Below, in pieces: positions 47,304 through 64,000 of a DNA stretch of 64,000 nucleotides. Both the position numbers and the translations under genes were made by a program. Source of the DNA: Nitrospirota bacterium (lineage in GTDB: Bacteria; Nitrospirota; UBA9217); NCBI GenBank assembly GCA_963751455.1, contig CAVVUN010000012.1, positions 256,001 to 320,000 on the forward strand, written 5' to 3'. Numbering within the stretch: the first letter of the stretch is position 1; each line of letters opens with the position of its first letter. The notes beneath the pieces were generated by a model. That model worked only from the letters and a program-made list of their open reading frames with translations, was not told the DNA's origin and ran no database searches.

Positions 47304-48405
47304 TTATGATTTGCTCATTTTACCGCCGAATATCTCCACAATTTTATTTACCAAAGCCGGCAGCGAGGGGTCGCGCGCGCCCATGATAAGAATACAGTCT
47401 TCAGGTTTTGCATCGAGTTTTAATCTGGTCAATAAGTCATCGCGGCTGGTGAGCGCTTGTGCATTGAATGCCGCGGGACCAAGGCCGTTTATGATATCTT
47501 CCGAGGAAATATTTTTTTGCGCCGTGCCTCCCGCATAATCCTAAAAACGGCATTTGAACACGGATGAACACGGTAACAGCGGATCAAAACAATGTGATAG
47601 AGCAAAAAGCCATCTCGCCTTTTGGGTGAATCCATTACTGTTCGTAACTTCCTATAAATCCGTGTTGATCAGATTTTATCCGTGTCCAACTGCTTTTTTC
47701 AGGATAATAGATCGGGAGGAGATAGAGTGAATCATTTGGCCGGAACGCGGTTCGAAAAGTTTCGATGTATTCGTCTTTCAAAAACCGTGTAGGGCCGAAG
47801 CCATGCGGCTGATATACGGCCAGGATGCGTCCGGAAAGGCCTCGGGCTGCCCGAACAACAGCCGCTATTTTTGCCGGATTATGGGCAAAGTCATCAACCA
47901 CATGCACGTTCGCTTTTGTTGCGGTGACGGAAAATCGCCGGGCCACACCCTCATAATTTTTTACCGCATGCGCAAGGGCAGACGGCTCACAAGCGAAATA
48001 CTCGCATACGCAGAGCGCAGCGCACAGGTTTTCAAGATTGTGCTCTCCGGGAAGCGGCAGATGATACTCAGTGCCGCTCCTGAATAATTTGACCAAAGTC
48101 GGGAGGAGTTGCTCCCGGTCCGGCCGCCACGAACCCGAACCGTTTCGGCCGAAGCGCACGGTTGCAGGAAGCGAAGCAAGGACCGGATCGTCGGCGTTGG
48201 AGGCCGTCCAGGAAGATTGCGAAGCCAGCGTTTTGAAGAGTTTCGCGATGTCCTCAATGCTTTTGTGGTCCTTGGAAACATTCAGGATGACGGCCGCTTG
48301 CGGACGATATTTGACCACGGTTCCATCGCTTTCGTCCGCCTCCACCACCAGGAGGTCGGACCCGCCGCTATAAGCGTTTCCGATAAGGCCCTCTTTTTCG
48401 AGCCG
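47304..48405 (-). pseudogene. murC: MurC-like (UDP-MurNAc-Ala ligase family) gene, 5'-truncated and MITE-interrupted
   Basis: GLIGNA..LVVEADESDG, DH, VARRF, DDFAHNP, YQPHG, LPIY|YAGGT..MGARDP; N-terminal half absent; frame is restored when 47540-47708 is removed. Confidence 0.85.
47540..47703. mobile_element. 164-bp MITE inside murC
   Basis: 26-bp imperfect TIRs (21/26); 5-bp TSD ATAAT at 47535-47539 and 47704-47708. Confidence 0.88.
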
Positions 48406-48428: not shown

Positions 48429-50564
48429 TCAACCGATTCCTGGAATCCGCAAGGCTCGGTAAACCCAGAGCGCTTCATGAACGAGTACGGCGCTTAACGT
48501 ATGTGAATCAGGTTTCACATCCTTTGGAACGGTGAAAGAGTACTCCATCAATTGATCCTTGCACGGACCGATTTGTTTAAAAACAATGCGATGACTTACT
48601 TTTTCAGTTAGGCGAATCGCAACAACCGGTGAGCTTTTTGTGGACCAGACAGTATCGTTACAATCATTCACTCGCAGACAAACAACTACTTTTGCCCCTG
48701 CTCGGAGTTCGGATGGCCCCTCAAGCGATAGACGATACGCATTTTCAACCCAAAATTCGATCGGTCCGCAGACCTCGCACTCTCGCTGGATAAGGAGATT
48801 GCCGAGAGACAAGAGATGAGTAGCGGTTTCCCTAACAGTATGACCTGGCAAACATTGTGCCTCTGCCAGACAGGAATGTGAATGTAAGCCGGCATCAGCG
48901 ATAGATCGCCATAAAGCACCCCGACCTTCCCCAATAAACAGCATTTCGCAAAACAGAGTAGCCGCCAGTTCGTCCCACTGCCGAAATCCGAACTGAAGCG
49001 GATTGAGAAGTCGGCCGAGCTCGGGGTGCCACAAAAGCGAACGTTGGCAGCTTCGCACTAAATTCAGTCCTGCTTGCGCTGTTTCACTTATTTCACGGCT
49101 GATCTCTGCCATTCCGGCAAGTAACTCCTGACCGCTATTCGAGCCACTCAATTCCTTAGCGTAATGACGACGAACTGCTCGCTCCACTATGTTTGCATAT
49201 CCCGTTCGATCCAAATAGTGTAGCAACATGCTTGCTAATTTCTCCAACTCGTGACCACAGTTTCTTAGTTTAATTTCTCCGGGCTCGGCACTCTCCGTTA
49301 TAATAACGGCGCCGGTCGAGCCTCCTTGAATTACCGTTTGATCTTTAAGGCCTATTGTAGCAGCTAGGGGAGTTCCGGCTAGTTCAGATGGAAGAGCGAA
49401 TAGCTTAACCTTGGTCGATTGTGAATGCCACTTAGCTTCTTTATTGCCTAAGAGTTGTATTGATGGAGCAGGTCCGCAAGCATCGCCGAAAAGGACGTAT
49501 GGTCTTCTGCCTGTTGCACTCTCCTGAAAATCGTTCAGAAGGCATGCTATCTGTCCAAGTCCGACATTGTCCATTGAAAGAGAGTGACCAAGGGTAAGAT
49601 AATATTCGCTCAGTTCTGAGTTGCACCTGGTGGCAAGAAACGCTGCGGGAAAACCTTCGGCTATTGCAATTACGCTGTTTAGATCCGATGGGTAGAGTTC
49701 TCCGCCGAGCGCAAATCCACCGCATGAATGCAGCAGCAGGTTTCGGGCACTTAAATCCCCGAAGCCAATCGAAGTACGCGTACCAGCCGGTGCGCGCTTG
49801 CATTTACGAGTACCCAAGCCACTACAACCGTTAATAGGCCGATTATCAAGTAATCTTTCCGAGCTTATGCCGGCCCCGCAGAGGACAAGATTGCCTAGCT
49901 TAGCATGCCCGAATGTGCCGTGCGCGAAGACACTTAAGACATTCCAACTAGATTCCCGAATCCAGCGTCGAGCCTCATCCTCCATCCAGAGTATTTCATT
50001 GCAGCCGCTGGAAGTCCATCGTGACATTTTTTCTCGATCGAAATCTATCTCAGCTGAGTCAGGCCAATGAGCGTATTTAGCCAAATAGATCTTGGCCAAT
50101 GAAAAACTTAGACCCTCACTGTCAATTGCAGTAATTATACTCCAGGGACGCCGAAAGTGGACTGCCAATTGTTCAACTTGTGCAAAAGGGAAGTCATCGC
50201 GTAAACCTACGAGAACTGCTGAATCCCACACCGCAGCTTCAACTGAAAGCCAATTTTGTACTTTGGCAACGGGACGCTCCAACAACTGGGCATAGAACCT
50301 GACGATGCCGCTTAGTGCATCGTTTATGAAAAAAATCGGATTTCTATCATTTGTTCTCTTTCTTGGAGCGTCTATTTCACCCTTTTCCACCTGTTCTGAA
50401 GCAATATACCATTTTAAAATAGACTCCCAACGTGCAGATCGACCATCTTTCGGTCGCAGCACCATGGGTCCTCTCGCCGTGCCCTTCTTGAGCTGCTCTT
50501 CGAACGCAGTATGTCTTTCAGTCCAAGTAACCTTGTTGCTCATAACTTTGTCTTTAGTCATCAC
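48429..50564 (-). CDS. putative clan CD (caspase/gingipain C25-like) cysteine peptidase-domain protein
   Basis: VLSVFAHG (His), LLLHSC (Cys), YVLFGD resembling gingipain Y.LLGDP; C-terminal CEVC. Confidence 0.6.
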   Translation of the reverse strand: MMTKDKVMSNKVTWTERHTAFEEQLKKGTARGPMVLRPKDGRSARWESILKWYIASEQVEKGEIDAPRKRTNDRNPIFFINDALSGIVRFYAQLLERPVAKVQNWLSVEAAVWDSAVLVGLRDDFPFAQVEQLAVHFRRPWSIITAIDSEGLSFSLAKIYLAKYAHWPDSAEIDFDREKMSRWTSSGCNEILWMEDEARRWIRESSWNVLSVFAHGTFGHAKLGNLVLCGAGISSERLLDNRPINGCSGLGTRKCKRAPAGTRTSIGFGDLSARNLLLHSCGGFALGGELYPSDLNSVIAIAEGFPAAFLATRCNSELSEYYLTLGHSLSMDNVGLGQIACLLNDFQESATGRRPYVLFGDACGPAPSIQLLGNKEAKWHSQSTKVKLFALPSELAGTPLAATIGLKDQTVIQGGSTGAVIITESAEPGEIKLRNCGHELEKLASMLLHYLDRTGYANIVERAVRRHYAKELSGSNSGQELLAGMAEISREISETAQAGLNLVRSCQRSLLWHPELGRLLNPLQFGFRQWDELAATLFCEMLFIGEGRGALWRSIADAGLHSHSCLAEAQCLPGHTVRETATHLLSLGNLLIQRECEVCGPIEFWVENAYRLSLEGPSELRAGAKVVVCLRVNDCNDTVWSTKSSPVVAIRLTEKVSHRIVFKQIGPCKDQLMEYSFTVPKDVKPDSHTLSAVLVHEALWVYRALRIPGIG

Positions 50565-51492
50565 CCATCTCTCTATTTTTTACCAGATCGTTCCTTAACT
50601 CCAAAAGGTTTTCAACTTGCTTTTGGTCTTCGCGAGATAAGATAGGGATACGGGTCAGTTTCTCCAACTCTTCCTCTCGATCAAGCAGCCCGAAGCGTAT
50701 CCGCTCGGCTATGTAATCGATCAATATCCGGGGGGCGTGACCGCCGTTCCGCAGCAAAATGTTATAGATACCATAACTGGCCATCAAACAATCAGAATCA
50801 TAGGGTCCGACACCAGGGTCCTCCCAGGGCAGTTCAGCGATTGCACGCTCTATATCCCTCTTTGTAAGAGAATATGCCGCGACTACTCGAATGAAAGTCG
50901 GATCTTTCTGATCTATACAACTCCAGTTCTTGGGAGTATCACCTCCCGTAAAGATGGCTTTGGCGCCATAGCGTTGAGCAACAGTTCTGAAAACTGGAAG
51001 CTTCCACGCAGTCTTGCACGTTTGGCCACAGACTGAACTGCCTTGAATAATCATCTCCCGGAAGGCCTTGTAGGGATAGGAATGGATAAGCAGCCAATCA
51101 ACTTTTAGAAAATCGATAATAGAATTAATATTGGCTCTTGTCTTCACGTTTTTCATGCCTTGGTCCACGGTGAACGCCAGAACTTTGAGCCCTCTCTCAA
51201 CAAGCAGCTTCAGCGCTACCGCACTATCCTTACCGCCTGAAAACGCCAAAATAGCATCGTACTCCGCAGTCTTTGCCTCTTTTAGTGCCTCCTCGAATTC
51301 GCTCATGAGCACTTGAGGATCGATAGGCCTCTCGACGAGAGCAGCACACTGCAAACAGAGAAAGCGTCCCTTCGTTTCAACGAACTTTAATTTATTGTCC
51401 ATTCCCTCCCGGTAGATACAGATTTCACACATTCGACCGCCAGGCAGTGTTGCAGAAATAGTTCCGTTCAGCATTTTTGATTTAGACTCCAT
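50554..51492 (-). CDS. PP-loop N-type ATP pyrophosphatase (N-acetyl sugar amidotransferase/QueC-like)
   Basis: AILAFSGGKDS; N-terminal CEIC/CLQC; CGQTCK; RIRFGLLDREE. Confidence 0.8.
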   Translation of the reverse strand: MESKSKMLNGTISATLPGGRMCEICIYREGMDNKLKFVETKGRFLCLQCAALVERPIDPQVLMSEFEEALKEAKTAEYDAILAFSGGKDSAVALKLLVERGLKVLAFTVDQGMKNVKTRANINSIIDFLKVDWLLIHSYPYKAFREMIIQGSSVCGQTCKTAWKLPVFRTVAQRYGAKAIFTGGDTPKNWSCIDQKDPTFIRVVAAYSLTKRDIERAIAELPWEDPGVGPYDSDCLMASYGIYNILLRNGGHAPRILIDYIAERIRFGLLDREEELEKLTRIPILSREDQKQVENLLELRNDLVKNREMGDD

Positions 51493-51520: not shown

Positions 51521-53032
51521 TTAAATGCAGTAGGTTCTTAGTTCATCGAGAGCACGACGAGCTTCAATCCGATCATCGAAAGCGAAACGCCGGCCGCTCA
51601 CGAGCTGATAAGTTTCATGTCCCTTGCCGGCAATTAAAACCACCCCTTTTGATCCGGCCCGCATGATTCCCATCCGAATAGCAGCAGCGCGGTCAGTCTC
51701 AACTTCATACTTAAGATTGAGTTGAGACGTTGCTGATAGGTTTGCTTCACTCACTCCGGATAAAATTTCCTCTATTATTGCCCGGGGATCCTCGCACCTT
51801 GGATTATCAGATGTAATAATTACGTGATCGCTAAGATTACATGCGATTGCACCCATCAACGGTCGCTTACTGCGATCGCAGTCGCCTCCGCACCCAAAGA
51901 CGGTCACTAGTTTGCTATTTCCGGATAATGCCCGCAAGGAACCGCATACGTTTTCAAGTGCATCAGGCGTATGGGCATAATCAATAAAAACTCGCGGACC
52001 ATTGACTCCCTGCACCAGTACTCGTTCGAGCCTGCCTGGCACACCATGAAAAGTCGCTATGGCCTCCGCGGACGAATTTAGATCAACACCGAGAGCAAGT
52101 GTTGCGCTGACAGCTGCCATAATATTGTAAACGTTGTAAATGCCGGTCATAGGCGAGACGATGTGAACACTATTAAACCCTTCCGCATCAAGCTGGAACT
52201 TCAACTGCTCTAACGTCATCCCAAGTTTTGACGCCCTTATTGTGGCCCGCCTCTCAATTCCGTACGTCATGAAACGCGAGCTGACCCGCTCAACTAAATG
52301 CCGGCCCCAGAGATCATCTATGTTAATCACCGCCAAAGCTTTAGTCGGAAGCATTTGGAACAACCGTGCCTTTGCCTCGAAATAGGCATCCATGGTGCCG
52401 TGATAATTCAAGTGATCTCGAGTTAAATTTGTAAAAATACCGATTCCGAAGTGAAGGCCATCCACACGATGCTGGCAAAGTGAGTGGGAGGATACTTCAA
52501 TTGCCGCCGTGTTTTGTCCCGTAACACGCATAGCCTCCAGGCATGCATGAATCTCTATGGCTTCGGGAGTAGTGATGCCGCCGTAGAAGGTTTGATTTCC
52601 GACAACCCAATCAACGCTGCCGATCATGCCGCAGCCACGATTGACATGGTTGAGAATATGCCGAATAAGATAACCCGTTGTAGTTTTGCCATTAGTTCCG
52701 GTAATGCCGACAATATCCATCATTAAACTGGGATGGTTATAATAGGCTGAACAGAGGTGTCCAAGTGCTTGACGTGGATTGTTAGCGATAATATGGGGGA
52801 GTTTTGGAGAAAATCGTTTTTTCGCTAAAATTGCGACAGCTCCGTTCCTCACCGCTTGGGATATGGCTGCTAAATAATTTTTATTGTTTTCGTCAGTCGC
52901 AGTGAAAATGAAACCCGGTTCCACGCTACGGGAGTCCAGAGCTATACCGAGAATATCAACATTTGCCGAATTAGTGATGGTAATGTCTGGATAGGACGCG
53001 CTTAGGCGATTAATGAGCGTGTTGAAATTCAT
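51521..53032 (-). CDS. murE: MurE-family amino acid ligase (cluster-borne paralog)
   Basis: GITGTNGKTT, TTPE, EVSSH, FTNLTRDHL, DYAHTPD, GCGGD, SDNPR, IAGKGHE. Confidence 0.88.
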   Translation of the reverse strand: MNFNTLINRLSASYPDITITNSANVDILGIALDSRSVEPGFIFTATDENNKNYLAAISQAVRNGAVAILAKKRFSPKLPHIIANNPRQALGHLCSAYYNHPSLMMDIVGITGTNGKTTTGYLIRHILNHVNRGCGMIGSVDWVVGNQTFYGGITTPEAIEIHACLEAMRVTGQNTAAIEVSSHSLCQHRVDGLHFGIGIFTNLTRDHLNYHGTMDAYFEAKARLFQMLPTKALAVINIDDLWGRHLVERVSSRFMTYGIERRATIRASKLGMTLEQLKFQLDAEGFNSVHIVSPMTGIYNVYNIMAAVSATLALGVDLNSSAEAIATFHGVPGRLERVLVQGVNGPRVFIDYAHTPDALENVCGSLRALSGNSKLVTVFGCGGDCDRSKRPLMGAIACNLSDHVIITSDNPRCEDPRAIIEEILSGVSEANLSATSQLNLKYEVETDRAAAIRMGIMRAGSKGVVLIAGKGHETYQLVSGRRFAFDDRIEARRALDELRTYCI

Positions 53033-53292: not shown

Positions 53293-53505
53293 CTACCAGT
53301 TCATGATACCGCCACCCCGCACGAAACCTGCACGAGCCAAATCAGCACGAATATTCGCCAGTTTGGCTTTTGCTTCTTGAACTTTCGCCTTAGCTTCATG
53401 GAACTGAGCCAAGGCCTGAAAGTCCTTGGAAACTAAATTTTTGTGCTCCGTTCGGAGGCGGAGCTCCACAATACCACTGGTACTCACTTTCTTCTTTTCT
53501 GCCAT
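53293..53505 (-). CDS. putative RiPP precursor/scaffold peptide 2 (70 aa, ends GIMNW)
   Basis: AAGGAGG RBS; paralog of 53607-53810. Confidence 0.75.
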   Translation of the reverse strand: MAEKKKVSTSGIVELRLRTEHKNLVSKDFQALAQFHEAKAKVQEAKAKLANIRADLARAGFVRGGGIMNW

Positions 53506-53606: not shown

Positions 53607-53810
53607 TTACCAGTTATCCGATACGTCGCCAAGCACTAAACCCGCACGAGCCAAGTCAGCACGAATATGCGCCAATTTGGCTTTTGCTTCTTGAACTTTC
53701 ACTTTAGCTTCATGGAACTGAGCCAAAGCCTGAAAGTCCTTGGAAACTAATTTTCTGTGCTCCGTACGAAGCTCCTCGATACCGCGAATACCTAATTTCT
53801 TTTCAGCCAT
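53607..53810 (-). CDS. putative RiPP precursor/scaffold peptide 1 (67 aa, ends VSDNW)
   Basis: AAGGAGG RBS; shares RTEH..LVSKDFQALAQFHEAK.KVQEAKAKLA.IRADLARAG with its paralog. Confidence 0.75.
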   Translation of the reverse strand: MAEKKLGIRGIEELRTEHRKLVSKDFQALAQFHEAKVKVQEAKAKLAHIRADLARAGLVLGDVSDNW

Positions 53811-53869: not shown

Positions 53870-55390
53870 CTATATATGATTACTAAATCGATTTGAATCG
53901 TTCAAAACAAAGTTCTTATGACCAACAGCCGCAGCTGAGGCGCCTGCCATCCTCCCAAAAAAAGCGCCAGATAACAGACCAGTTCCGGCTAAATAGTTAT
54001 GATTGAAAAGGCCTCCCACCATTTCTCCGCAAGCGAAAAGGCCGGAGATAGGTTTCTGATTTGAATCAAGCACCTGAGCCATCTCATTTATTTTTACACC
54101 TCCATAAGTAAAAGTGATACCACCAGTAACGGGATATGCAAAAAAAGGCGGATCCTCAAGCCGGCGCGCCCAATTAGATTTAGGTGGTTGAATACCCGCA
54201 GCCGTCAAACCATCCAATTGGGTCGGGTCGAACTCACCTTGGCGCTGAGCCCCGTTATATTGCTTAAGCACTTCACATGCCCTAGCTTGATTTATTGGCA
54301 ACATCTTAACGAGGGATCCCAAGGAATCAGCGAGGATTGGTTTCCCGGTCTTATAGCGTTTCTCCAGCAGCGGCACGGCATTCGCGTCAAATATCTGGTA
54401 GGCTATGCCATTGGGCTGGCTTAGGATGATTCGACCCATCTTTGCATACGTGAAAAACTGAAAGTCTTCTCCTTCGTCACAAAAGCGCTGGCCGAGGCGA
54501 TTCAGCATCACTCCAAAAGGATAGGAAAGCCGGTTGGACTTATCAGTCAATGAACGGGAGCCGAAAAATGAAGTGCCCGCGTCAATGGGTGTAGAATGAC
54601 AGTGCGTGAAATTACCGTATCGAAGCGCGTTTAAGTCAAAAGCCATGCGCAAACCATCTCCGGTATTATAGGCAGTGCCTCGAACTCTCGCTTGAGCCCA
54701 TTGCCTACCCAAATAGTGCGCACGCCAAGCAGCATTAGACTCAAACCCCCCACAGGCCAGTATAATAGCTTTAGCGGTTAATTGAGAATATCCTTTCGGG
54801 CTCCGGGCAAGAACACCCGTAACCCTCGACCGATTATCCCGGGTTAGCGATACTGCAGCTGTTTGATATAGCACCTCTATTCCTCGTTCAGCAGCAATGT
54901 TGAACCACATTCGTGATAGTCCTACGCCTCCATCGCGTACCTGAACCAAAGCTCCAGGCGACCATCCCACCTTATTTTTGTGGCAAATAGCGCTCAAGGA
55001 TACGGCCAATTCCATAGCTATGCCTTGGTTTACCAACCAGCGGACTGTGTCATAAGAGTGATTGACCAACAGCATGCTCAAATGTAAATCGATTTGACGA
55101 TGAGTAAGGCGCTGTAGATCCTCCCAAAATTGTTGAGCTGTATAAGATGTTATCTCCTCGAAAAAGCCAGGAACTTGACGTTCGGCATCAGGTAACAGTG
55201 GCCGTAGATCGTTTCTCGAATCGAAGGCGAAACGCAATAGCCCTCCGCTGAAGTAAGTATTTCCACCACGAAAATGTTCAGGTGCTTTCTCGAGAACAAT
55301 AACTCGCTTCGCGCCATTTTCGTGGGCGGATACGGCGGCAGCCATAGCGGCGTTCCCAGCGCCAACGATTATTACGTCAAAATCAGACAT
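53870..55390 (-). CDS. FAD-dependent oxidoreductase, TcuA/CobZ-like
   Basis: VGAGNAA, EKAP..RGGN, ACGGFE, NTGDG, GITFTYGGV, CGEMVGG. Confidence 0.85.
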   Translation of the reverse strand: MSDFDVIIVGAGNAAMAAAVSAHENGAKRVIVLEKAPEHFRGGNTYFSGGLLRFAFDSRNDLRPLLPDAERQVPGFFEEITSYTAQQFWEDLQRLTHRQIDLHLSMLLVNHSYDTVRWLVNQGIAMELAVSLSAICHKNKVGWSPGALVQVRDGGVGLSRMWFNIAAERGIEVLYQTAAVSLTRDNRSRVTGVLARSPKGYSQLTAKAIILACGGFESNAAWRAHYLGRQWAQARVRGTAYNTGDGLRMAFDLNALRYGNFTHCHSTPIDAGTSFFGSRSLTDKSNRLSYPFGVMLNRLGQRFCDEGEDFQFFTYAKMGRIILSQPNGIAYQIFDANAVPLLEKRYKTGKPILADSLGSLVKMLPINQARACEVLKQYNGAQRQGEFDPTQLDGLTAAGIQPPKSNWARRLEDPPFFAYPVTGGITFTYGGVKINEMAQVLDSNQKPISGLFACGEMVGGLFNHNYLAGTGLLSGAFFGRMAGASAAAVGHKNFVLNDSNRFSNHI

Positions 55391-55469: not shown

Positions 55470-57164
55470 TTAGTCCCGCATCTTTCTAGGTTGAACGGTT
55501 GTATGGCCAGAAAATAACCATATTTCGCGTTCACGGGGCAGATTGTTGACATCAACATTAGCAGGAGTGTCTATAAATTTTTTTACATTTTCCCCTAAAT
55601 GCAAGGCGATCAATGAAGCCATATCCTCTTTCGACGGAACTGGTATCAGGATTTGTGCACCGAGAAGCTTCATCATGTCCATCGTTTTCGCATTGTTAAA
55701 GGCACAGGTATGTGCATCGTCATAGAGGCAGAGTAATACATCTACCGGCATAAGTGCAGAAATCTCATCGTGAGATAATGAACGTGTCAATCCGCCAATA
55801 TAACAAAACCGGAAGCCATCGAACTCGATGACTGCTATCGGAGATTGATAGACTCCTCCCGAAATCAAACTCTCGTCCCGGTTAATTAGCTGTATTGAGC
55901 AAAAGTCATAATTTATGATGTCGACGGCTCTCTTCCTGTTTACGTTAGAAGCGCCCAAGGGTGTTTGTAACTGATGTTTTTTCGACCAAATACCATCTCT
56001 GTCAAGCACTACCACATCTTCTTGCTGTTCAATTAGTCGAGAGCTTTTTCTGCGGGGGTCCAGAATGACCAGGCCTGGCTTCGATGCCGATTGAAGTTCA
56101 ATAAACCCATCACGACATCTAATACTGTACTTGCCGGCTGATCCTGAAACATAAGGCTTACGCGCCGATGAAACTGATAGCGGGCAGTACAAATCCGCCT
56201 CATCAGATCGTAGCCCCCAACCGACTGCACATGCTCTACAGCCTCCGAGACAATTAGAAAGGTGACCGCAGCTAGAGCAGGTATCAGGCACATTGAGAGT
56301 ACGCAATGCATTCATCCGCGCGCCATAAAACACTTCAGTAAGTCGATGAGTGACGAGATTGCCTAATGGCAATTTAATATAACCGCAAGGGACAAGGTTC
56401 CCCAGGGCATCAACGTGCAAATGCTTACTGAAGCAGCCTGGCTGAGTCGAAGGTGTCGTCCCCTGCAAAAACTCAAAACAGGATGAGCCAAAAGTGATCT
56501 GTCTGTATTTTGACATCGCAATGGCGCTCTTCACGACCTCGGCAACCTGCTCCGCCGAGGGACAAAGCTCATGACTTGCACGGCCCGACGGCACTACGGG
56601 GCGGATTTTAAATATCGCAGCGCCTGCATTGTGGGCGGAATCAGCGACCTGCTTCATTTCTGCGATATTGACTCGTGTAAGCGTCATGCGTACGAGGACC
56701 TGGAATCCCATACTTGAAGCCGTCTCAATATTGGCCAGCGTACGTGCAAATGCTCCCGGTGTGTTCCGATGCCAATCATGAGTAGGTCCAAATCCGTCTA
56801 GGCTCACGTGCATCGTAAAAATGCCTGCATCGAGCATACGGTCCAATTCTTCAGAATTCAAATTATAGGCGTTCGTGAAAAGTATTGATGCGATGCCGGC
56901 GTCAATCAGATGCCTTCCAATAGCGCATACAAGATTTAATTCTAAGGTAGGTTCTCCGCCGGTGATGGCCACTTCTTTCGTATCGAGCTGATGAAGATCC
57001 TCAATAAGCTTTGACCTAAAGCGGGAGAAGTTAAAAACAGCACCTTTTTTCGGCGCCGGGCGCGCACAATGCCGGCATTTCATGTTGCACTGGTCGTTTA
57101 TGCGAATGCGGAGACTCTGGAGTCGCGCATATGGAACGGTCGGAAGCATGTTAGGTTTCAACAC
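55470..57164 (-). CDS. radical SAM/SPASM enzyme fused to a degenerate MBL-fold C-terminal domain
   Basis: CNMKCRHC, TGGEP, SLDG; SPASM CSSC..C.GGCRA..C; C-terminal IEFDGFRFCYIGGL..VDVLL..ILIP. Confidence 0.85.
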   Translation of the reverse strand: MLKPNMLPTVPYARLQSLRIRINDQCNMKCRHCARPAPKKGAVFNFSRFRSKLIEDLHQLDTKEVAITGGEPTLELNLVCAIGRHLIDAGIASILFTNAYNLNSEELDRMLDAGIFTMHVSLDGFGPTHDWHRNTPGAFARTLANIETASSMGFQVLVRMTLTRVNIAEMKQVADSAHNAGAAIFKIRPVVPSGRASHELCPSAEQVAEVVKSAIAMSKYRQITFGSSCFEFLQGTTPSTQPGCFSKHLHVDALGNLVPCGYIKLPLGNLVTHRLTEVFYGARMNALRTLNVPDTCSSCGHLSNCLGGCRACAVGWGLRSDEADLYCPLSVSSARKPYVSGSAGKYSIRCRDGFIELQSASKPGLVILDPRRKSSRLIEQQEDVVVLDRDGIWSKKHQLQTPLGASNVNRKRAVDIINYDFCSIQLINRDESLISGGVYQSPIAVIEFDGFRFCYIGGLTRSLSHDEISALMPVDVLLCLYDDAHTCAFNNAKTMDMMKLLGAQILIPVPSKEDMASLIALHLGENVKKFIDTPANVDVNNLPREREIWLFSGHTTVQPRKMRD

Positions 57165-57292: not shown

Positions 57293-58318
57293 TCAAAATT
57301 CCAGAGAGTTTGGCTTAATATTCTGACAAGATGGTACGCTTACCGTGAGGTCATTGAAAAAATTGAAACCCAGCGCCCTGCATGCCGAACAAAAATATTG
57401 ATCGTCACAATTTCCACATTTTCCTTGATATTTTCCAGGCGTTTGTTTTCGTAGAAGTGCCAAAAGTTCAGATGACCAAATTTTTTTCAAATCGTCATTA
57501 ACAAGATTTCCCAAGGCGGATGCCAAAACAGGTTTAAAATGCTCGCAAGGTCGAACTGTGCCATCAGGGGATATTGATAATTTGAACCTACCCGCAGAAC
57601 AAAGCTTCAGATGATCATTTTCCGGACTGCGACTGCAACTGCTGTATCGTAATGGTAACTTGCTAACTGTTGTCTTCGCGCGTTGCCACAAAGCGAATGC
57701 CGCCGACTCATCTTGTGCAAATATATGCTGTCCAAATTTAAACGGTACATAATATTGCATGATAACTCCGCGCAGTCGGTCTGGCAAAGCAGATATAAAC
57801 TCGGCTGGTTCAGGGCATCCTGCTAAAAGTGACCAGACAACCATCACATTAAGACCAGCATCCATTGCATGTATCATAGCCGAGCAAGTCTCATCGAAGC
57901 TGCCTGCCCGCGTTTGCTTGTCGTGGTAAACGCGGTTGCCAAATAATTCAAATATAATATTTCCAACGCCGGTTTTTCCCAATTTAAACCAAAAATCCGC
58001 TTCAGGCATTGGGCCACCTGTAATAAGGTCGCAATCGAGGTCATCTTTAGTTGACTCCTCCAGTATCTCTGGGAGCCACGGGAAAGCATTACAGCCCGGT
58101 GCGATAAATAACACATGCCGAATATTGTGCTCCGACAGAACCAGTAAAACCTTTCGTATGATTCTTTGCTGTTCTTTTGGCTCATAACCTTGGAAAAAGT
58201 AGGGGCAATGTTTGCATTCAAACGCACATTTCCAAGCGAGCTGGATATGGGCCTCAATTGCAACGCTCGGTAGTATGGATAAAAAATCTTTAATCCTCTG
58301 ATCGACTTGTTGATTCAT
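57293..58318 (-). CDS. radical SAM/SPASM protein (divergent)
   Basis: CAFECKHC; CSAG..PDG.V.PC; CGNC..CSACRA; ATGA overlap with the upstream gene. Confidence 0.85.
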   Translation of the reverse strand: MNQQVDQRIKDFLSILPSVAIEAHIQLAWKCAFECKHCPYFFQGYEPKEQQRIIRKVLLVLSEHNIRHVLFIAPGCNAFPWLPEILEESTKDDLDCDLITGGPMPEADFWFKLGKTGVGNIIFELFGNRVYHDKQTRAGSFDETCSAMIHAMDAGLNVMVVWSLLAGCPEPAEFISALPDRLRGVIMQYYVPFKFGQHIFAQDESAAFALWQRAKTTVSKLPLRYSSCSRSPENDHLKLCSAGRFKLSISPDGTVRPCEHFKPVLASALGNLVNDDLKKIWSSELLALLRKQTPGKYQGKCGNCDDQYFCSACRALGFNFFNDLTVSVPSCQNIKPNSLEF

Positions 58319-59304
58319 TTTATCAACCAGCAATAAGGGTCGGGCGCGTATAAATCTCCTGAACTAATGTAAGCCATGGCACGACATCCGCCACCGCATT
58401 GCATAAAGCTGCTGCAATTGCAGCAACGTGGATCGATTCCATCTCTAGCCCTCAGAGCATCCATAACTGGATGCCGCGACAAGATATCATCTATATGGTT
58501 AGATGCCAGTGTACCCAGCGTCAAGGGGAAAACCGGGCATGGATAAGCATGTCCTTGAGCTGTATAATGCAACATATAACCTGCTCCGCACTGAGCTCGT
58601 TCGTCGATGGATCTTTCTGCGAAAAGAGCTGCACAGTGTGGCAGCTCCAAGTGAATACCTATATGAAAAGTAGAAATCTTTTTGATATCTAAAATAAAAC
58701 GCTTTAATGATTCTCCGGACAAAATAGGACCAGACAGGCCGGCTTGTCTGCCCAGAGGCATAAGTGGGAATAGGATTAAGGTGTTGACACCCAGTTCATC
58801 TAGCATGTGAATCATTTGCTGGATATCACTTTGATTATGGCGAGAAACGGCTGTTTGAACAGCCACTCTGACGCCTTTTCTAACAAGGCGCTCGATCGCA
58901 GACCAGGCTTTAATGAACGTGCCCGGGCCTCTCACAGCCTCATGAGCCTTGGATAGCCCGTCCAACGAGACCTTAATACCATAAATATTCATAGAAATGA
59001 GTTGCTCGATTCGTTCATCTGAAAGGAGAATTCCATTGGTTGTTAAACCCCAGAACATTTGCTTACGAGTTGCATAAGTGCCGAACGACTTGACTATATT
59101 CCACTCAAGTAGCGGCTCTCCACCGGTCAAGTCGAGAATAGGTGTGCGTTCACCCATCTGGTTAAAAAGTTCTGCTACCATCAATTCTGACCAAGAGGAA
59201 GTCGAACTCGCAGAGCTGTCGACGGCGCAATGGGTACACGAAAGATTGCATCGTGCAGTTATTTGAACGCTAATGGAAGTAAGGGGCGCTGATTCGAATG
59301 CCAT
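58315..59304 (-). CDS. radical SAM/SPASM enzyme
   Basis: AGGAG RBS before MAFESA; CNLSCTHC, TGGEP, TTNG, SLDG; CGAG..PC; CCNC..CGGGCRA..DPYC. Confidence 0.9.
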   Translation of the reverse strand: MAFESAPLTSISVQITARCNLSCTHCAVDSSASSTSSWSELMVAELFNQMGERTPILDLTGGEPLLEWNIVKSFGTYATRKQMFWGLTTNGILLSDERIEQLISMNIYGIKVSLDGLSKAHEAVRGPGTFIKAWSAIERLVRKGVRVAVQTAVSRHNQSDIQQMIHMLDELGVNTLILFPLMPLGRQAGLSGPILSGESLKRFILDIKKISTFHIGIHLELPHCAALFAERSIDERAQCGAGYMLHYTAQGHAYPCPVFPLTLGTLASNHIDDILSRHPVMDALRARDGIDPRCCNCSSFMQCGGGCRAMAYISSGDLYAPDPYCWLIK

Positions 59305-59389
59305 TGTCGGAGAACTCCTGTAATGCTGCGATGAATTTGGGGGATAACCAACTATTGGGTATCCCCCATGTGGTAATGCAGCTAGCGTT

Positions 59390-59464
59390 TTAGAGACAAT
59401 GGGCAATGTTGACCATACAACCCGCAAATCGAACTTTTTTCAACTTAAGCTTAAATTTGCGCAT
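59390..59464 (-). CDS. putative 24-aa RiPP precursor MRKFKLKLKKVRFAGCMVNIAHCL (not in ORF track)
   Basis: AAAGGAGG RBS just upstream of ATG 59464; TAA at 59390-59392; followed by hairpin 59339-59367; flanked by rSAM genes. Confidence 0.7.
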   Translation of the reverse strand: MRKFKLKLKKVRFAGCMVNIAHCL

Positions 59465-59494
59465 ATAGCACCTCCTTTCTCCGTTTGAGTTCTC

Positions 59495-60319
59495 CTAAAG
59501 AGGCCCTGGGCATAATTTATCCCTGCCTGTGCGTCTTCTGCGGGCTCGGCATCCCCCGCCACAATCCTTAATAGCACACTTTAAACATTCATCGGGAACC
59601 CGAGACCAGGTGAGAAGCCTCTCATCATTCCAAATTTCGCTCAAGCTTTTGTTGTCTAAGGAGCCCAGGCAAAGGCGTGAGCGTCGACATGGACGAACTT
59701 CAGCCTGCTCCGAAACAAACAGGGCAAATCGACCAGCTGGGCATTTACTTCCGACATTTACAAAATCAGGGAAAAAACGCTGCATTAATACCAGATCTGA
59801 TATGACAGGTATCGAGCAATTGTCGGAAAATTCAGATACTGCATAAAGAAATTGTCGGTAAGTATCAACCGAAGCGTGTGGAAGCTCCTCGATGTTCACG
59901 GCTGCCACAGATCTTGCTGACAGCCATTCGATCCAAACCTCTTGATTCGCCTTAGGAGGCAAGTAACCAACAATGACAATACTAAAGCCAAAATCCAGGA
60001 GCATGGCGATTTTTTCCTTGAGACTTTTATCGGGCGAAAGACTTGTATCAACGCTGACTCGCAATGTACATGGAGCAAGCCGGCGCCAGGATGGACGAGG
60101 TTGCAAATCCTCGTATGCGAGGGTCAACACAAGTTCATAACCATGTATTACACTTAAATCCAAAGCCGTTTCAATTGGACCCTTGCATACCATGTTAATA
60201 ATGGAAATTCCTCCAGCAAGTATCATTGACAAGCGTTCGGTCCACAGCGTGTGGTCGGGCTGCAAAGGCAAATCTACCTCGGCAATCATAGGCGCTATCA
60301 GGCGTTCGCTTTCGGACAT
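59495..60319 (-). CDS. SPASM-domain protein lacking the radical SAM CxxxCxxC motif
   Basis: CPAG..VRPC..LGS..SLSEIW..CLKC..CGGGCRA..C present; no N-terminal Cys triad. Confidence 0.78.
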   Translation of the reverse strand: MSESERLIAPMIAEVDLPLQPDHTLWTERLSMILAGGISIINMVCKGPIETALDLSVIHGYELVLTLAYEDLQPRPSWRRLAPCTLRVSVDTSLSPDKSLKEKIAMLLDFGFSIVIVGYLPPKANQEVWIEWLSARSVAAVNIEELPHASVDTYRQFLYAVSEFSDNCSIPVISDLVLMQRFFPDFVNVGSKCPAGRFALFVSEQAEVRPCRRSRLCLGSLDNKSLSEIWNDERLLTWSRVPDECLKCAIKDCGGGCRARRRRTGRDKLCPGPL

Positions 60320-61269
60320 AAAGGATCGTTACCCCAAATTTCCTTTGTGGCGCTGTAGGCTGCTGCTCGGCAACCTCTGCATATCGTGCAAAAATCGCAA
60401 GTATAGCACTTGGCTTCAGATGGAACGGTGCGCAGCGATGCCATTAATTCAGAAGTTTGCCATGCGGCGGTAAATCCTACATCGAAAACATTACGATCAG
60501 AAATACGCAGTTTCGCACAGGGTAGCATAGAGCCATCACTGGAGATTACAACCGCCCATCTGCCGGCGGAACAGCCACTCCAGATATCGTTGGGAATATC
60601 TTTGATATATTTTTTTGGAGTTAATAAATTAAGCAAAGGTTCTTCACAAGATAAATTCTCATGCGATTGCATCCATCCCGAGATCGTCTTCAAGACATGA
60701 TCATACTCGACTACTCCGAGAGAAAAATCATAATCAAGCTTGCCGGGTAAGGCGCAAATTCTCTGGAAACCTGCAGGAACTCCAAGACGAACGAACAGAT
60801 TTAAGAATTTGTCTATTTTAGCGATATTTCGCGACGAAAGTGTCACGAGAAAAGTAATTGGAAGGCCTGCATCTCGCAAGCGCAAGACTTGTTCACACAC
60901 TGCTTGCGCCCTTTCATCCTCTGTTGGAAGAGCATGAAGACTGAGTTGAATAAAAGAAATTTTGTTGTGAAGACGGCTAAAGAAATTTTCAGGAATTCGG
61001 AGTCCATTTGTCAAAAGACCTGGTCGCCAGCCAAACTGATTAGCTTTCCCGACCAGTTCCTCAATATGCGGATATTGCAAACACTCGCCCCCTGTAAAAA
61101 CGATTCGCTCTACTCCCGCCTTTTTAGCCTCAGCCAGAAGTTGAGTGCCTTCAAACAGCGGCATATCTGTAATATGGCGTTCAGAGCCTAAATAACAAAA
61201 GGGGCAATCCAAGTCACATCGTGTAGTTACCTCCAGCTCGAGTAAACTTGGCGCTTGCAAATTCAGCAT
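60298..61269 (-). CDS. radical SAM/SPASM enzyme (PqqE/MftC-like architecture)
   Basis: CDLDCPFC, FTGGE, LTNG; CSAG..PC; CYTC..C..CRGCRA..DPLC. Confidence 0.9.
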   Translation of the reverse strand: MLNLQAPSLLELEVTTRCDLDCPFCYLGSERHITDMPLFEGTQLLAEAKKAGVERIVFTGGECLQYPHIEELVGKANQFGWRPGLLTNGLRIPENFFSRLHNKISFIQLSLHALPTEDERAQAVCEQVLRLRDAGLPITFLVTLSSRNIAKIDKFLNLFVRLGVPAGFQRICALPGKLDYDFSLGVVEYDHVLKTISGWMQSHENLSCEEPLLNLLTPKKYIKDIPNDIWSGCSAGRWAVVISSDGSMLPCAKLRISDRNVFDVGFTAAWQTSELMASLRTVPSEAKCYTCDFCTICRGCRAAAYSATKEIWGNDPLCPKANA

Positions 61270-61270
61270 T

Positions 61271-61594
61271 TTACAATCCCTTTTCGATCCGGATTAGTTT
61301 GTTATCATTCATTTCCTGGAGAAAACCAGATAACTCTTCTATTAACTCCTTTCTTTCTGGAATTTCAACGTTACCGATTTTTTCTAAATTATAAGTAATA
61401 TCGTCGCAAATTTTGCCGAACGTTGTCGGTTTATCCAATAGACGCCATACCATTGCTTCGAACTCGCCAAATTCGTAGAAGCCGTGAAAATCCGGTCGTT
61501 CTCCTTTGTATCTTGGGAAAACCAGTATCCTCCCATCCTCAGTATCTCGCCACTGATGGCTCTCTAGTCTATACACTAACGTTGAGTCATCCAT
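61271..61594 (-). CDS. PqqD-like RiPP recognition element (RRE)
   Basis: 107 aa; beta strands then helices (AMVWRLLD..TFGKIC..FLQEM...LI); AGGAGG RBS; coupled to the rSAM gene. Confidence 0.78.
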   Translation of the reverse strand: MDDSTLVYRLESHQWRDTEDGRILVFPRYKGERPDFHGFYEFGEFEAMVWRLLDKPTTFGKICDDITYNLEKIGNVEIPERKELIEELSGFLQEMNDNKLIRIEKGL

Positions 61595-61671: not shown

Positions 61672-63999
61672 TTACTTACTAAATATAATATTCGAAACAT
61701 CGATAACATCTTCCTTCAACGCAGTGTTAGATAGCAGCTCCCATGATGTGCTCCTTATGGCTGCCTTCAAATCACTCGCAATTGGCTCTATAATGTTTAT
61801 TATATTTGGGTTGGCATGGATGACTATACTCTCAATGCTTCGCCAACTTGGGAGCTGATGAGCCGCCTTCGCCTTATTGACCGCAGAATACACGGCCTGA
61901 GCTACATCAAAACTACTGTTCTTGTCAGGCGGAGAAATCCCCTTGAAATCCGTGTCGTTGGGCCAAGGTGCAATTGAAATACTCTTAATTCCAGTTTCCC
62001 CTGCAAATTCCCAAGACCAAACTTCCTCGCAGATATAGGGAATAAACGGTGCAAACATCTTGATTAATGTTTTAAGACCGAGACGCTGAGCGGCTATAGA
62101 CGACCCTTGATCTTCTGATTTAATACCATCTCCGCCCCATGTTCTCTTTTTGCTTAACTCAAGATAACTATCTGTGAAAGAATGCCAGAAGAAACTTTCA
62201 AGGGTGGAAAGGGCACTGCAGAAATTATATTCGTTTAATTGTTCAGTTACCGTTCGTACAGCTTTTCTGAGATGATCAATGAATGCCCGGTCTAATTCAC
62301 AAGATATGCTGTTTCCAGGTCCCTTTTGTGAAAGCACGAATTTTGAGGCATTATATATTTTTACAACAAGTCGGTTGCCTATTTTTACGATATTCTCATC
62401 ATATGCAGTATCAACTCCAAGTCGCGCATTCCCTGCCCAATAACGGAGGGCATCGGAGGAATACTTTTCAAGAAGATCGGTCGGCACAATAACATTACCT
62501 TTACTCTTGGACATTTTTTTTCTGTCTGGATCAAGAACCCATCCTGAAATGTTAATATTTTTCCAAGGTATTATATTTTCATGCAGCAGAGATTTCACTA
62601 TTGTGTAAAAAGCCCACGTTCTTATAATTTCATGACTTTGTGGCCGCAAATCCATAGGAAATAACTTACTGTGCCGATCTTCGTCTACTAACCATCGAGA
62701 TGCGATTTGAGGAGTCAATGAACTCGTGAACCAGGTATCAAAAACATCGGCTTCTGCAACAAACCCATTTGCTATTCCTCTCTGCCCTTCAGAATAGCCA
62801 GAGGGACAGGTTACTGCCGGGTCAACTGGAAGTTGATCTTCAGCGGCAATTATTGGCTTTGCGTAGTCTGGAATTCCATTATTATCGATAGGATACCATA
62901 CCGGGAAAGGGACGCCGAAATATCTTTGACGGCTGATGCACCAGTCCATATTTAAATTTTGGGTCCAATCCCTATATCTATTAAGCATAAAACTCGGATA
63001 CCAGTTGATTTCCTCCCCCTTTTCCAAAAGTTGTGCTTTCTTATCAAGTAGACGTACGAACCATTGACGTGTTGTTATGTATTCAAGAGGATGATCCCCT
63101 TTCTCGTAGTACCTGACAAAGTGTTTTAATGATCTCTTCGCGATTAAGGGGGGGGCATTTCCGACTGCAGCGCCATTTGGCCGTCTTAACATTTCAGCAA
63201 TTATTTCTCGAGCTTTCCGCACTGGCTTGCCGGCAAGTTCTGAATAAAAAGTATTTGCTAAACTCGGATTTTGACTATGCCAACCCTCATGGCCAAAGCT
63301 GATGTTTGCGAATCTCCCATCTCCTGAAATAATCTGCCTTAAAGGCAGATTTTCTTCACGCCACCATTGAACATCGTTTTGATCTCCGAATGTACAGACC
63401 ATAAGGATGCCGGTGCCTTTTTCAGGATTCACCATTTTACTAGGAAAGCATCGAACTTCTGAAAAAAATAAGGGAGTAATGGCTTTTTCCCCGACTAGGT
63501 GCTTATACCTTGGGTCGTCCGGATGAAATGTAACTCCAACGCAGGCCGGTAGAAGCTCGGGGCGGGTAGTCGATATGGTGAAACCAGCATCTGATTCGGC
63601 TAGACCAAAACGAATATCGTGAAAAACGCCTTCAACTTCTCGATCTTCAACTTCTGCTTGAGCAATTGCAGTTTGAAAGTCAATATCCCACATGGTGGGC
63701 CCTTCCGAACTATACAGGTGGCCCTTTCTCAGTAGGTCCAAAAAACTTACTTGCGCAATAGTTCTACAAAGCTTATCAATGGTTGAGTATTCCTGATGCC
63801 AATCCACAGACAATCCGATTCTTTGCCACAAACTTTTGAATACTTCTTCATCTTCTTTTGTCAGTTTAACGCAAAGATCTAAAAAATTAGATCGTGATAT
63901 AATCTGCGGTTTTTTCTTCCTATCTTCCGAGTCCGCCTGTTTTATGTTCAAATGCTCTTTATACGGCTCATTAGGATCGCATCGGACATGAAAATAATT
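61672..63999 (-). CDS. valS: valyl-tRNA synthetase, type 2 (actinobacterial/archaeal-like); 5' end outside window
   Basis: NYFHVRCDP, TTRPELL, GTGILM.CTFGD, DWCISRQR, DTWFTS, RPQSHEIIRTW, KMSKS; frame open to the window edge. Confidence 0.92.
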   Translation of the reverse strand, partial: NYFHVRCDPNEPYKEHLNIKQADSEDRKKKPQIISRSNFLDLCVKLTKEDEEVFKSLWQRIGLSVDWHQEYSTIDKLCRTIAQVSFLDLLRKGHLYSSEGPTMWDIDFQTAIAQAEVEDREVEGVFHDIRFGLAESDAGFTISTTRPELLPACVGVTFHPDDPRYKHLVGEKAITPLFFSEVRCFPSKMVNPEKGTGILMVCTFGDQNDVQWWREENLPLRQIISGDGRFANISFGHEGWHSQNPSLANTFYSELAGKPVRKAREIIAEMLRRPNGAAVGNAPPLIAKRSLKHFVRYYEKGDHPLEYITTRQWFVRLLDKKAQLLEKGEEINWYPSFMLNRYRDWTQNLNMDWCISRQRYFGVPFPVWYPIDNNGIPDYAKPIIAAEDQLPVDPAVTCPSGYSEGQRGIANGFVAEADVFDTWFTSSLTPQIASRWLVDEDRHSKLFPMDLRPQSHEIIRTWAFYTIVKSLLHENIIPWKNINISGWVLDPDRKKMSKSKGNVIVPTDLLEKYSSDALRYWAGNARLGVDTAYDENIVKIGNRLVVKIYNASKFVLSQKGPGNSISCELDRAFIDHLRKAVRTVTEQLNEYNFCSALSTLESFFWHSFTDSYLELSKKRTWGGDGIKSEDQGSSIAAQRLGLKTLIKMFAPFIPYICEEVWSWEFAGETGIKSISIAPWPNDTDFKGISPPDKNSSFDVAQAVYSAVNKAKAAHQLPSWRSIESIVIHANPNIINIIEPIASDLKAAIRSTSWELLSNTALKEDVIDVSNIIFSK

Positions 64000-64000
64000 T

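Follow-up and report, generated by a model that had tools for sequence, protein, structure and literature searches.

A 24-residue peptide gene without annotation is nearly unchanged in three distant microbes, beside an RRE protein, five radical SAM/SPASM proteins and a tRNA synthetase

A short gene with its own signals

The window analysed here is the whole stretch of 64,000 nucleotides from a Nitrospirota bacterium. Its minus strand carries a 24-aa ORF (59464-59390) that reads MRKFKLKLKKVRFAGCMVNIAHCL and then a stop codon. This candidate precursor peptide gene (59390..59464) encodes a basic/hydrophobic N-terminal half and an invariant FAGCM-x-NIAHC core, in which C16 and C23 are spaced as C-x6-C and H22 adjoins C23. 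A Shine-Dalgarno site, AAGGAGGT, lies on the same strand at 59470..59477, 5 nt upstream of the peptide ATG, and AAGGAGGT with an ATG occurs at only 99 such sites in the whole 5.7-Mb genome. Folding predicted a 13-bp hairpin 3' of the gene (59338..59368, minus strand). The 71-nt stretch containing it reached -26.1 kcal/mol (z = -4.97), a stability equalled in 0 of 200 shuffles; the hairpin (59368-59338) has no U-tract and was not among the listed terminators. No second copy of the peptide was found in the host's own genome.

The longest ORF of the radical SAM gene 3' of the peptide begins at a TTG (59427) and overlaps the peptide gene. Because orthologs of this 329-aa protein align from ATG 59304 and not from TTG 59427, ATG 59304 is taken as the true start and the longer ORF as over-extended. 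An earlier note on this DNA had described a near-perfect ribosome-binding site, an own stop with a downstream hairpin, masking by an over-extended radical SAM ORF and a C-x6-C tail with His beside Cys, and all of these readings hold. Its placement of the gene between radical SAM genes is right for the downstream neighbour (radical SAM/SPASM, 329 aa) and wrong for the upstream one, a SPASM-only protein without CxxxCxxC.

An RRE protein and five radical SAM/SPASM proteins surround the gene

In minus-strand order, the genes are valS, RRE, radical SAM (323 aa), SPASM-only (274 aa), the peptide, radical SAM (329 aa), radical SAM-like (346 aa) and a radical SAM-metallo-beta-lactamase-like gene (564 aa). 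They continue downstream with a TcuA-like flavoprotein, ORFs of 67 and 70 aa and a second murE, followed by an N-type ATP pyrophosphatase and an unknown protein of 711 aa. Three clusters are compared below, from the window, a metagenome contig and an archaeon; each has an RRE, the same set of five radical SAM/SPASM orthologs and a full-length synthetase for a branched-chain amino acid.

The stand-alone RRE/PqqD-like protein (107 aa; 61271..61594, minus strand) scored 18.3 bits against PF05402, under the cut-off. Its model, built from an 8-row alignment, reached a pLDDT of 88.6, and the best PDB matches were TbiB1 with leader peptide, lasso B1 and PqqD (probability 0.99-1.00; best E 1.4e-3, none reaching E<=0.001). 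The archaeal cluster has two RRE genes, one of them above the Pfam cut-off. The model thus confirms the RRE fold of the 107-aa protein, and a PqqD-like winged-helix RRE, which counts as a RiPP criterion, is present in the cluster by fold.

The five radical SAM/SPASM proteins, all on the minus strand, differ in how well the CxxxCxxC motif is kept. The 323-aa radical SAM/SPASM protein (60298..61269), which also bears an invariant PCAKLRISD motif, has CxxxCxxC in 3/3 clusters, and the 274-aa SPASM-only, degenerate radical SAM protein (59495..60319) in 0/3. The 329-aa radical SAM/SPASM protein (58315..59304) is encoded directly 3' of the peptide gene in 3/3 clusters. The radical SAM/SPASM-like protein of about 346 aa (57293..58333) keeps the motif in two clusters and has lost it in the archaeal ortholog, and the fusion of a radical SAM/SPASM protein to a metallo-beta-lactamase-like part (55470..57164) occurs in the window cluster only. 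When 39 proteins were placed in a tree (15 from the clusters, 8 of 150 representative matches and 16 of GeoRSP type from fetched loci), the five paralogs formed five supported ortholog groups with one member per cluster. Radical SAM proteins with CxxxCxxC and SPASM cysteines, a further RiPP criterion, are therefore present, three orthologs keeping the motif everywhere. Since one protein is without the motif everywhere and a second is without it in the archaeon, the three motif-bearing enzymes are the likely catalysts.

None of the cluster proteins reached the cut-off of an NCBIfam maturase model. No ortholog of the SPASM-only protein turned up in 60 relatives, its best matches being GeoRSP proteins or SPASM domains, and a viral scan with the radical SAM alignment gave 27 loci and no ortholog (best E 1e-10). 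No peptidase or exporter is common to the three clusters; a transporter was seen neither in the window island nor in the archaeal locus, and the metagenome locus has one MFS gene upstream on the opposite strand.

The cluster lies in an acquired island

The run that holds these genes has a GC content of mostly 42-47%, compared with about 51% genome-wide. Direct repeats of the 3' part of murC flank it (97.7% identical over 701 bases and 89% over 236). From the low GC and the bounding repeats, we conclude that the peptide cluster sits in an acquired island. The left repeat (47304..48404) is interrupted by a repeat of about 170 bp found genome-wide, and the right copy lies beyond the window on the same contig, at about 64952-65883. 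The duplicated murC 3' segment is about 940 bases long, and the intact copy is by sequence a YkuD-like-murC fusion. The interrupting element (window 47535-47708) is MITE-like, about 170 bases long and present in dozens of near-identical genome copies. No integrase was seen inside the island.

The accessory genes, also on the minus strand, vary between loci. Found in the window alone were the TcuA-like flavoprotein (53870..55390), the second MurE-like ligase (51521..53032), the 67-aa and 70-aa ORFs and the 711-aa protein; the flavoprotein and the 67-aa ORF were not seen in the other two loci. The N-type ATP pyrophosphatase (WbuX-like; 50554..51492) has a 34% identical ortholog in the metagenome cluster, and none was found in the archaeal genome. 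The 711-aa protein (48429..50564) belongs to no known family: it gave no Pfam, NCBIfam or PDB sequence match, and a partial single-sequence model had a pLDDT of 32. Its His-Gly and Ser-Cys motifs, picked out by eye, presumably recall clan CD (gingipain-like) proteases. The 67-aa (53607..53810) and 70-aa (53293..53505) ORFs are 74% identical paralogs with strong ribosome-binding sites, helical-looking bodies, variable 10-residue tails and Asn-Trp ends. They matched no family (best Atlas score 0.77) and may be precursors of a second pathway with the MurE-like ligase, the ATP pyrophosphatase or the 711-aa protein.

A GNAT and a radical SAM protein of RaSEA-like type were found in the metagenome cluster only (L043:14346-16129); this cluster is flanked by a transposase-like ORF on one side and integrase-like ORFs on the other. 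Separately, two marine proteobacterial plasmids (L136:7385-11736 and L137:4586-9020) share a different cassette, which encodes an NTF2-like protein, a radical SAM protein, a PqqD and two further radical SAM proteins; an annotated precursor was not identified there.

The peptide is conserved in three distant microbes

Conservation was assessed in the three clusters with readable DNA: the window's own, that of metagenome contig Ga0326727_10001624 (L043) and that of a Candidatus Iainarchaeum (DPANN) genome (L095). The peptide gene, which is without annotation, was nearly unchanged in these distant microbes, one of them archaeal. A query with the SPASM-only protein against 1.84 billion representatives returned three full-length homologs (35-42%), together with a few that were partial. 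The metagenome cluster was found with an alignment of the closest five rows, as the one confirmed case among 127 candidates. The archaeal cluster was the one genuine hit among 60 matches to a degenerate peptide pattern in a species-genome collection.

In the metagenome cluster, the peptide gene directly follows the SPASM-only gene and its product shares 21 of 24 residues with the window peptide, the changes being K7T, V18L and L24M. Of 25 codons, 6 were identical, 16 synonymous and 3 non-synonymous, and 16 of the 21 base changes fell in third positions; the flanks of the gene were unconserved (10 and 7 of 30 bases). The archaeal peptide is encoded by an ORF of 25 aa preceded by GGAGG, and it matches the window peptide at 16 of the last 21 residues. 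Sixteen positions were invariant across the three peptides, including F13-A-G-C-M17 and N19-I-A-H-C23, and thus C16, M17, N19, H22 and C23. When equal numbers of base changes were placed at random, none of 200,000 placements equalled the observed number of preserved residues in either pairwise comparison. The neighbouring proteins were 31-50% identical to their counterparts in the metagenome cluster and 28-36% to those in the archaeon. A hairpin of unrelated sequence occupies the same place 3' of the gene in the metagenome cluster (z -3.2), and no hairpin was found 3' of the archaeal gene (z 0.4).

By this codon pattern, the peptide is under purifying selection in 3/3 readable clusters, and a short precursor conserved in related clusters, the third RiPP criterion, is found in all of them. 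Such codon-level selection on the 24-mer implies translation, and the ORF is almost certainly a real translated gene.

The remaining 59 pattern matches were dismissed as chance, none being a short Met-started ORF beside cluster orthologs; one of those dropped (L073) had an unrelated radical SAM match nearby. Eight viral matches to the pattern were likewise put down to chance. Plasmid searches returned neither the peptide nor an ortholog cluster, and species genomes scanned by protein alignment returned nothing. A profile of the peptide gave no credible match in 400 other genomes from the host's own phylum (five weak partial matches, best E 1.9e-4, with internal stops) or in 214 other Iainarchaeota genomes (eight weak partial matches, E 0.01-0.04). 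The peptide had no Pfam or NCBIfam match, and none of the three short peptides was present in the protein collection by exact look-up. The family is rare, with one further genome found by exact pattern among 185,579 species, a collection from which the records nearest the host's own genome are possibly absent. No description of the family was found in the literature searched, most subscription journals lying outside that search.

Three different tRNA synthetases adjoin an RRE gene

A class Ia synthetase gene adjoins an RRE gene in 3/3 clusters, and its type differs each time: an alternative ValRS in the window, a bacterial LeuRS in the metagenome cluster and an archaeal LeuRS in the archaeon. 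The synthetase gene lies 77 bases upstream of the RRE gene in the window and 76 in the metagenome cluster, and is divergent at 40 bases in the archaeon; there it also has a 4-base overlap with the 346-type gene. HIGH, KMSKS-like and editing motifs are present in all three synthetases, and no resistance mark was found in them.

In the window, the gene (61672..64000, minus strand; its start lies about 320 bases past the window end) encodes a second, foreign-type valyl-tRNA synthetase of 881 aa. This ValRS is of the alternative type (NF000540, 1062 bits against a cut-off of 900), has intact HIGH, KMSKS and editing motifs, and is an extra copy besides the host ValRS; none of 40 relatives gave a match at E<=1e-100. 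We rejected the idea that the host's native valS (G000:C3:167500-170100) is decaying: the sole leuS (G000:C2:141100-143650) is likewise frameshifted, so both frameshifts are most likely assembly errors.

In the archaeon, the archaeal-type LeuRS of the cluster is the sole LeuRS found in the genome. Three close kin have 74-80% identical ValRS, and the two checked carry a bacterial-type LeuRS that is about 30% identical, in part, to the cluster LeuRS. Long-stretch matches to the cluster LeuRS (32-52%) occurred in 6 of 30 relatives, and the two of these that were checked are distant (ValRS 34-38%). The 329-type enzyme had no ortholog in five close archaeal kin (best 25-31%). At loci L145 and L147, from kin of the Iainarchaeum genome G301, the LeuRS is bacterial-type, and more distant members of the phylum have the archaeal type. 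By these comparisons, the cluster synthetase is foreign in two of the three hosts, both of the testable ones: an extra or foreign synthetase is present as a second copy in the window and as a foreign-type sole copy in the archaeon. That the archaeon has lost its native leuS is compatible with resistance and also with simple redundancy. argS and alaS also flank the archaeal cluster, which may therefore merely sit among translation genes.

Peptide residue 18 is Val in the cluster with ValRS and Leu in both clusters with LeuRS. This tracking of the synthetase type is suggestive only, at n=3: V18L is a conservative single-base change, the chance of the Val falling on the ValRS cluster is 1/3, and residue 24 (L, M, L) has no correlation with synthetase type.

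The cluster resembles known systems and belongs to none of them

Maturation of RiPPs by radical SAM/SPASM enzymes with a stand-alone RRE is known from PqqA/D/E, mycofactocin, sactipeptides and ranthipeptides. The window cluster shares with these a short precursor, a PqqD-like RRE, radical SAM/SPASM enzymes and a Cys core, and differs in its five paralogs, one or two of them degenerate, and in the absence of a shared peptidase or exporter. Compared with sactipeptides and ranthipeptides, the window peptide has two invariant Cys only. By its genes, the cluster resembles an RRE-dependent radical SAM RiPP system while matching no curated maturase family.

The closest named system by gene layout is GeoRSP, which has a stand-alone RRE, a compact radical SAM/SPASM protein and a SPASM-only protein in the same order. 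At 3 of 12 GeoRSP-like regions there was a short, basic peptide that contains Gly and His and has a Cys close to its end. These GeoRSP peptides have a YxxP leader and an HPC end, unlike the window peptide; beyond the 3 of 12 regions there was one possible fragment at a region end, and a profile of the window peptide matched 0 of 5 genomes with GeoRSP peptides at E<=1. The window proteins fall under the TIGR04303 (radical SAM/SPASM; best 101.9 of 400) and TIGR04304 (SPASM-only; best 23.7 of 300) cut-offs and lie outside both GeoRSP clades, the SPASM-only groups being sisters at 84/93 only. The window cluster also has five paralogs against two in GeoRSP and is accompanied by a tRNA synthetase. 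GeoRSP membership was therefore rejected: both cut-offs are missed, the clades are separate and the precursor differs. True GeoRSP members occur in the host family, with 3 of 301 genomes above the TIGR04304 cut-off. In one same-family genome, a 15-base stretch around the ribosome-binding site of the GeoRSP peptide gene (L031:4286-4367) is identical to one in window 59465-59483; the peptides themselves are not detectably related.

Synthetase genes also occur in clusters for synthetase inhibitors. The resistant synthetases AbmK (SerRS; albomycin) and AgnB2 (LeuRS; agrocin 84) lie in inhibitor clusters, asnS is found in some microcin C clusters, and AbmK supplies substrate besides giving resistance (PMC8323819). 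Microcin C, whose product derives from a peptide (PMC8323819), is named as a synthetase-targeting RiPP in a further source (PMC8183687). The window cluster shares the extra synthetase with albomycin, agrocin 84 and microcin C (PMC8323819). It differs in that its shared genes include no ThiF/MccB-type enzyme, nucleoside pathway or exporter, and in that radical chemistry would take their place. No shared nucleotide-transfer enzyme of the kind in known synthetase inhibitors was found in the three clusters.

Fosfazinomycin offers a further parallel. In that pathway, a 22-aa RRE-associated scaffold peptide had been missed by annotation, a dedicated peptidase was not found, and Val is transferred from Val-tRNA to fosfazinomycin A once this has been assembled on the short peptide (PMC13622209). 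The window is like it in having a precursor so short that it was overlooked, together with RREs, and in that a dedicated peptidase was not found; in fosfazinomycin, a Val-tRNA-dependent step is added (PMC13622209). The window differs in having no asparagine-synthetase-like ligase, phosphonate genes or YxxP leader, and in the dominance of radical SAM proteins.

Discussion

The conserved peptide is very probably the substrate of its cluster. The earlier note had proposed it as the precursor of the RRE and radical SAM set and had named conservation in related clusters as a check. Conservation was found in 3/3 readable clusters (21/24 residues in the metagenome contig, 16 of the last 21 in the archaeon), and with the RRE fold it strongly supports a precursor role, in which RRE binding and modification are the predicted steps. 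The accompanying idea of very dense modification by the whole set was overstated, the motif being missing in one protein everywhere and in another in the archaeon. The tRNA synthetase that goes with the cluster in 3/3 cases has no place in the note.

From general RRE biology and the PDB matches of the 107-aa protein, we infer that the N-terminal half (F4-K-L-x-L-K-x-V-R-F13), with its alternating hydrophobic residues, would bind the RRE as a strand. The RRE would then present residues 14-24 to the three intact enzymes, which may modify the GCM-x-NIAHC core, probably including thioether chemistry at Cys16/Cys23. Bond chemistry is unreadable from sequence; thioethers from these cysteines, for example to Asn19, would be plausible. 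The degenerate paralogs are likely non-catalytic partners.

A functional link between the peptide cluster and the synthetase is, in our judgement, probable. The reading we prefer, tentatively and with the balance tipping slightly against it, is that a product made on the peptide as scaffold acts on ValRS or LeuRS and that the cluster's own synthetase would protect the producer. The most speculative step is that residue 18 (Val/Leu) would become, or mark, an amino-acid mimic freed by host peptidases. In its fullest form, the proposal is of a peptide-derived synthetase poison: the five radical-SAM-family proteins would carve a Val/Leu mimic at position 18, the residue there would set the target, a matching resistant synthetase would be recruited, and the host leuS would be displaced in the DPANN archaeon. 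This full form is speculative and, as it stands, unlikely.

The peptide could instead be a precursor whose product stays in the cell, either a cross-linked Cys/His peptide or a cofactor or metal ligand of the PQQ or mycofactocin kind, with the synthetases as passengers or only indirectly involved. The invariance of C16, M17, N19, H22 and C23 suits such a product, as do the absence of an exporter common to the clusters and the order RRE, radical SAM, SPASM-only shared with GeoRSP, whose SPASM-only group is the sister (84/93). Hitch-hiking is hard to reconcile with the synthetases, because three types share the same RRE junction and are foreign in both testable hosts; we regard this alternative as possible, if on the doubtful side.

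A rather poor prospect is that the synthetase serves as donor, with Val/Leu-tRNA or aminoacyl-AMP being appended to the product of the precursor. The precedents are AbmK, which gives substrate besides resistance (PMC8323819), and the late Val transfer in fosfazinomycin A (PMC13622209). The GNAT of the metagenome cluster and the N-type ATP pyrophosphatase of two clusters would suit such a step. Against this, no transferase is common to all three loci, and the archaeal locus, in the stretch read, has neither the GNAT nor an ortholog of the ATPase.

Improbable, too, is a translated peptide that is no substrate at all and acts as a small subunit, a metal carrier or a regulatory leader, while the substrate of the enzymes is tRNA, the synthetase or some small molecule. 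A near-invariant N-terminal half is indeed unusual for a leader that is discarded, both bacterial clusters have a hairpin 3' of the gene, and the metagenome cluster adds a RaSEA-like radical SAM protein. Stand-alone RREs in 3/3 clusters, two of them in the archaeon, speak for a substrate instead; a run of control codons is absent, and the archaeal copy has no hairpin.

That the 24-codon ORF arose by chance, with the downstream ORFs of 67 and 70 aa as the real precursors, as their strong ribosome-binding sites, variable C-terminal tails and the failed exact look-ups might suggest, is scarcely credible and already largely refuted, since codon-level selection acts on the 24-mer and the longer ORFs are unmatched in the other two loci.

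With the peptide, the five orphan radical SAM/SPASM proteins would have a defined substrate of 24 residues, making new radical chemistry testable, and its family spans the divide between bacteria and archaea with a core that is nearly fixed. If the synthetase link is true, the product would be a peptide-derived inhibitor or mimic directed against ValRS or LeuRS, with a single precursor residue revealing the target, and the link would explain why a DPANN archaeon has exchanged an essential synthetase gene.
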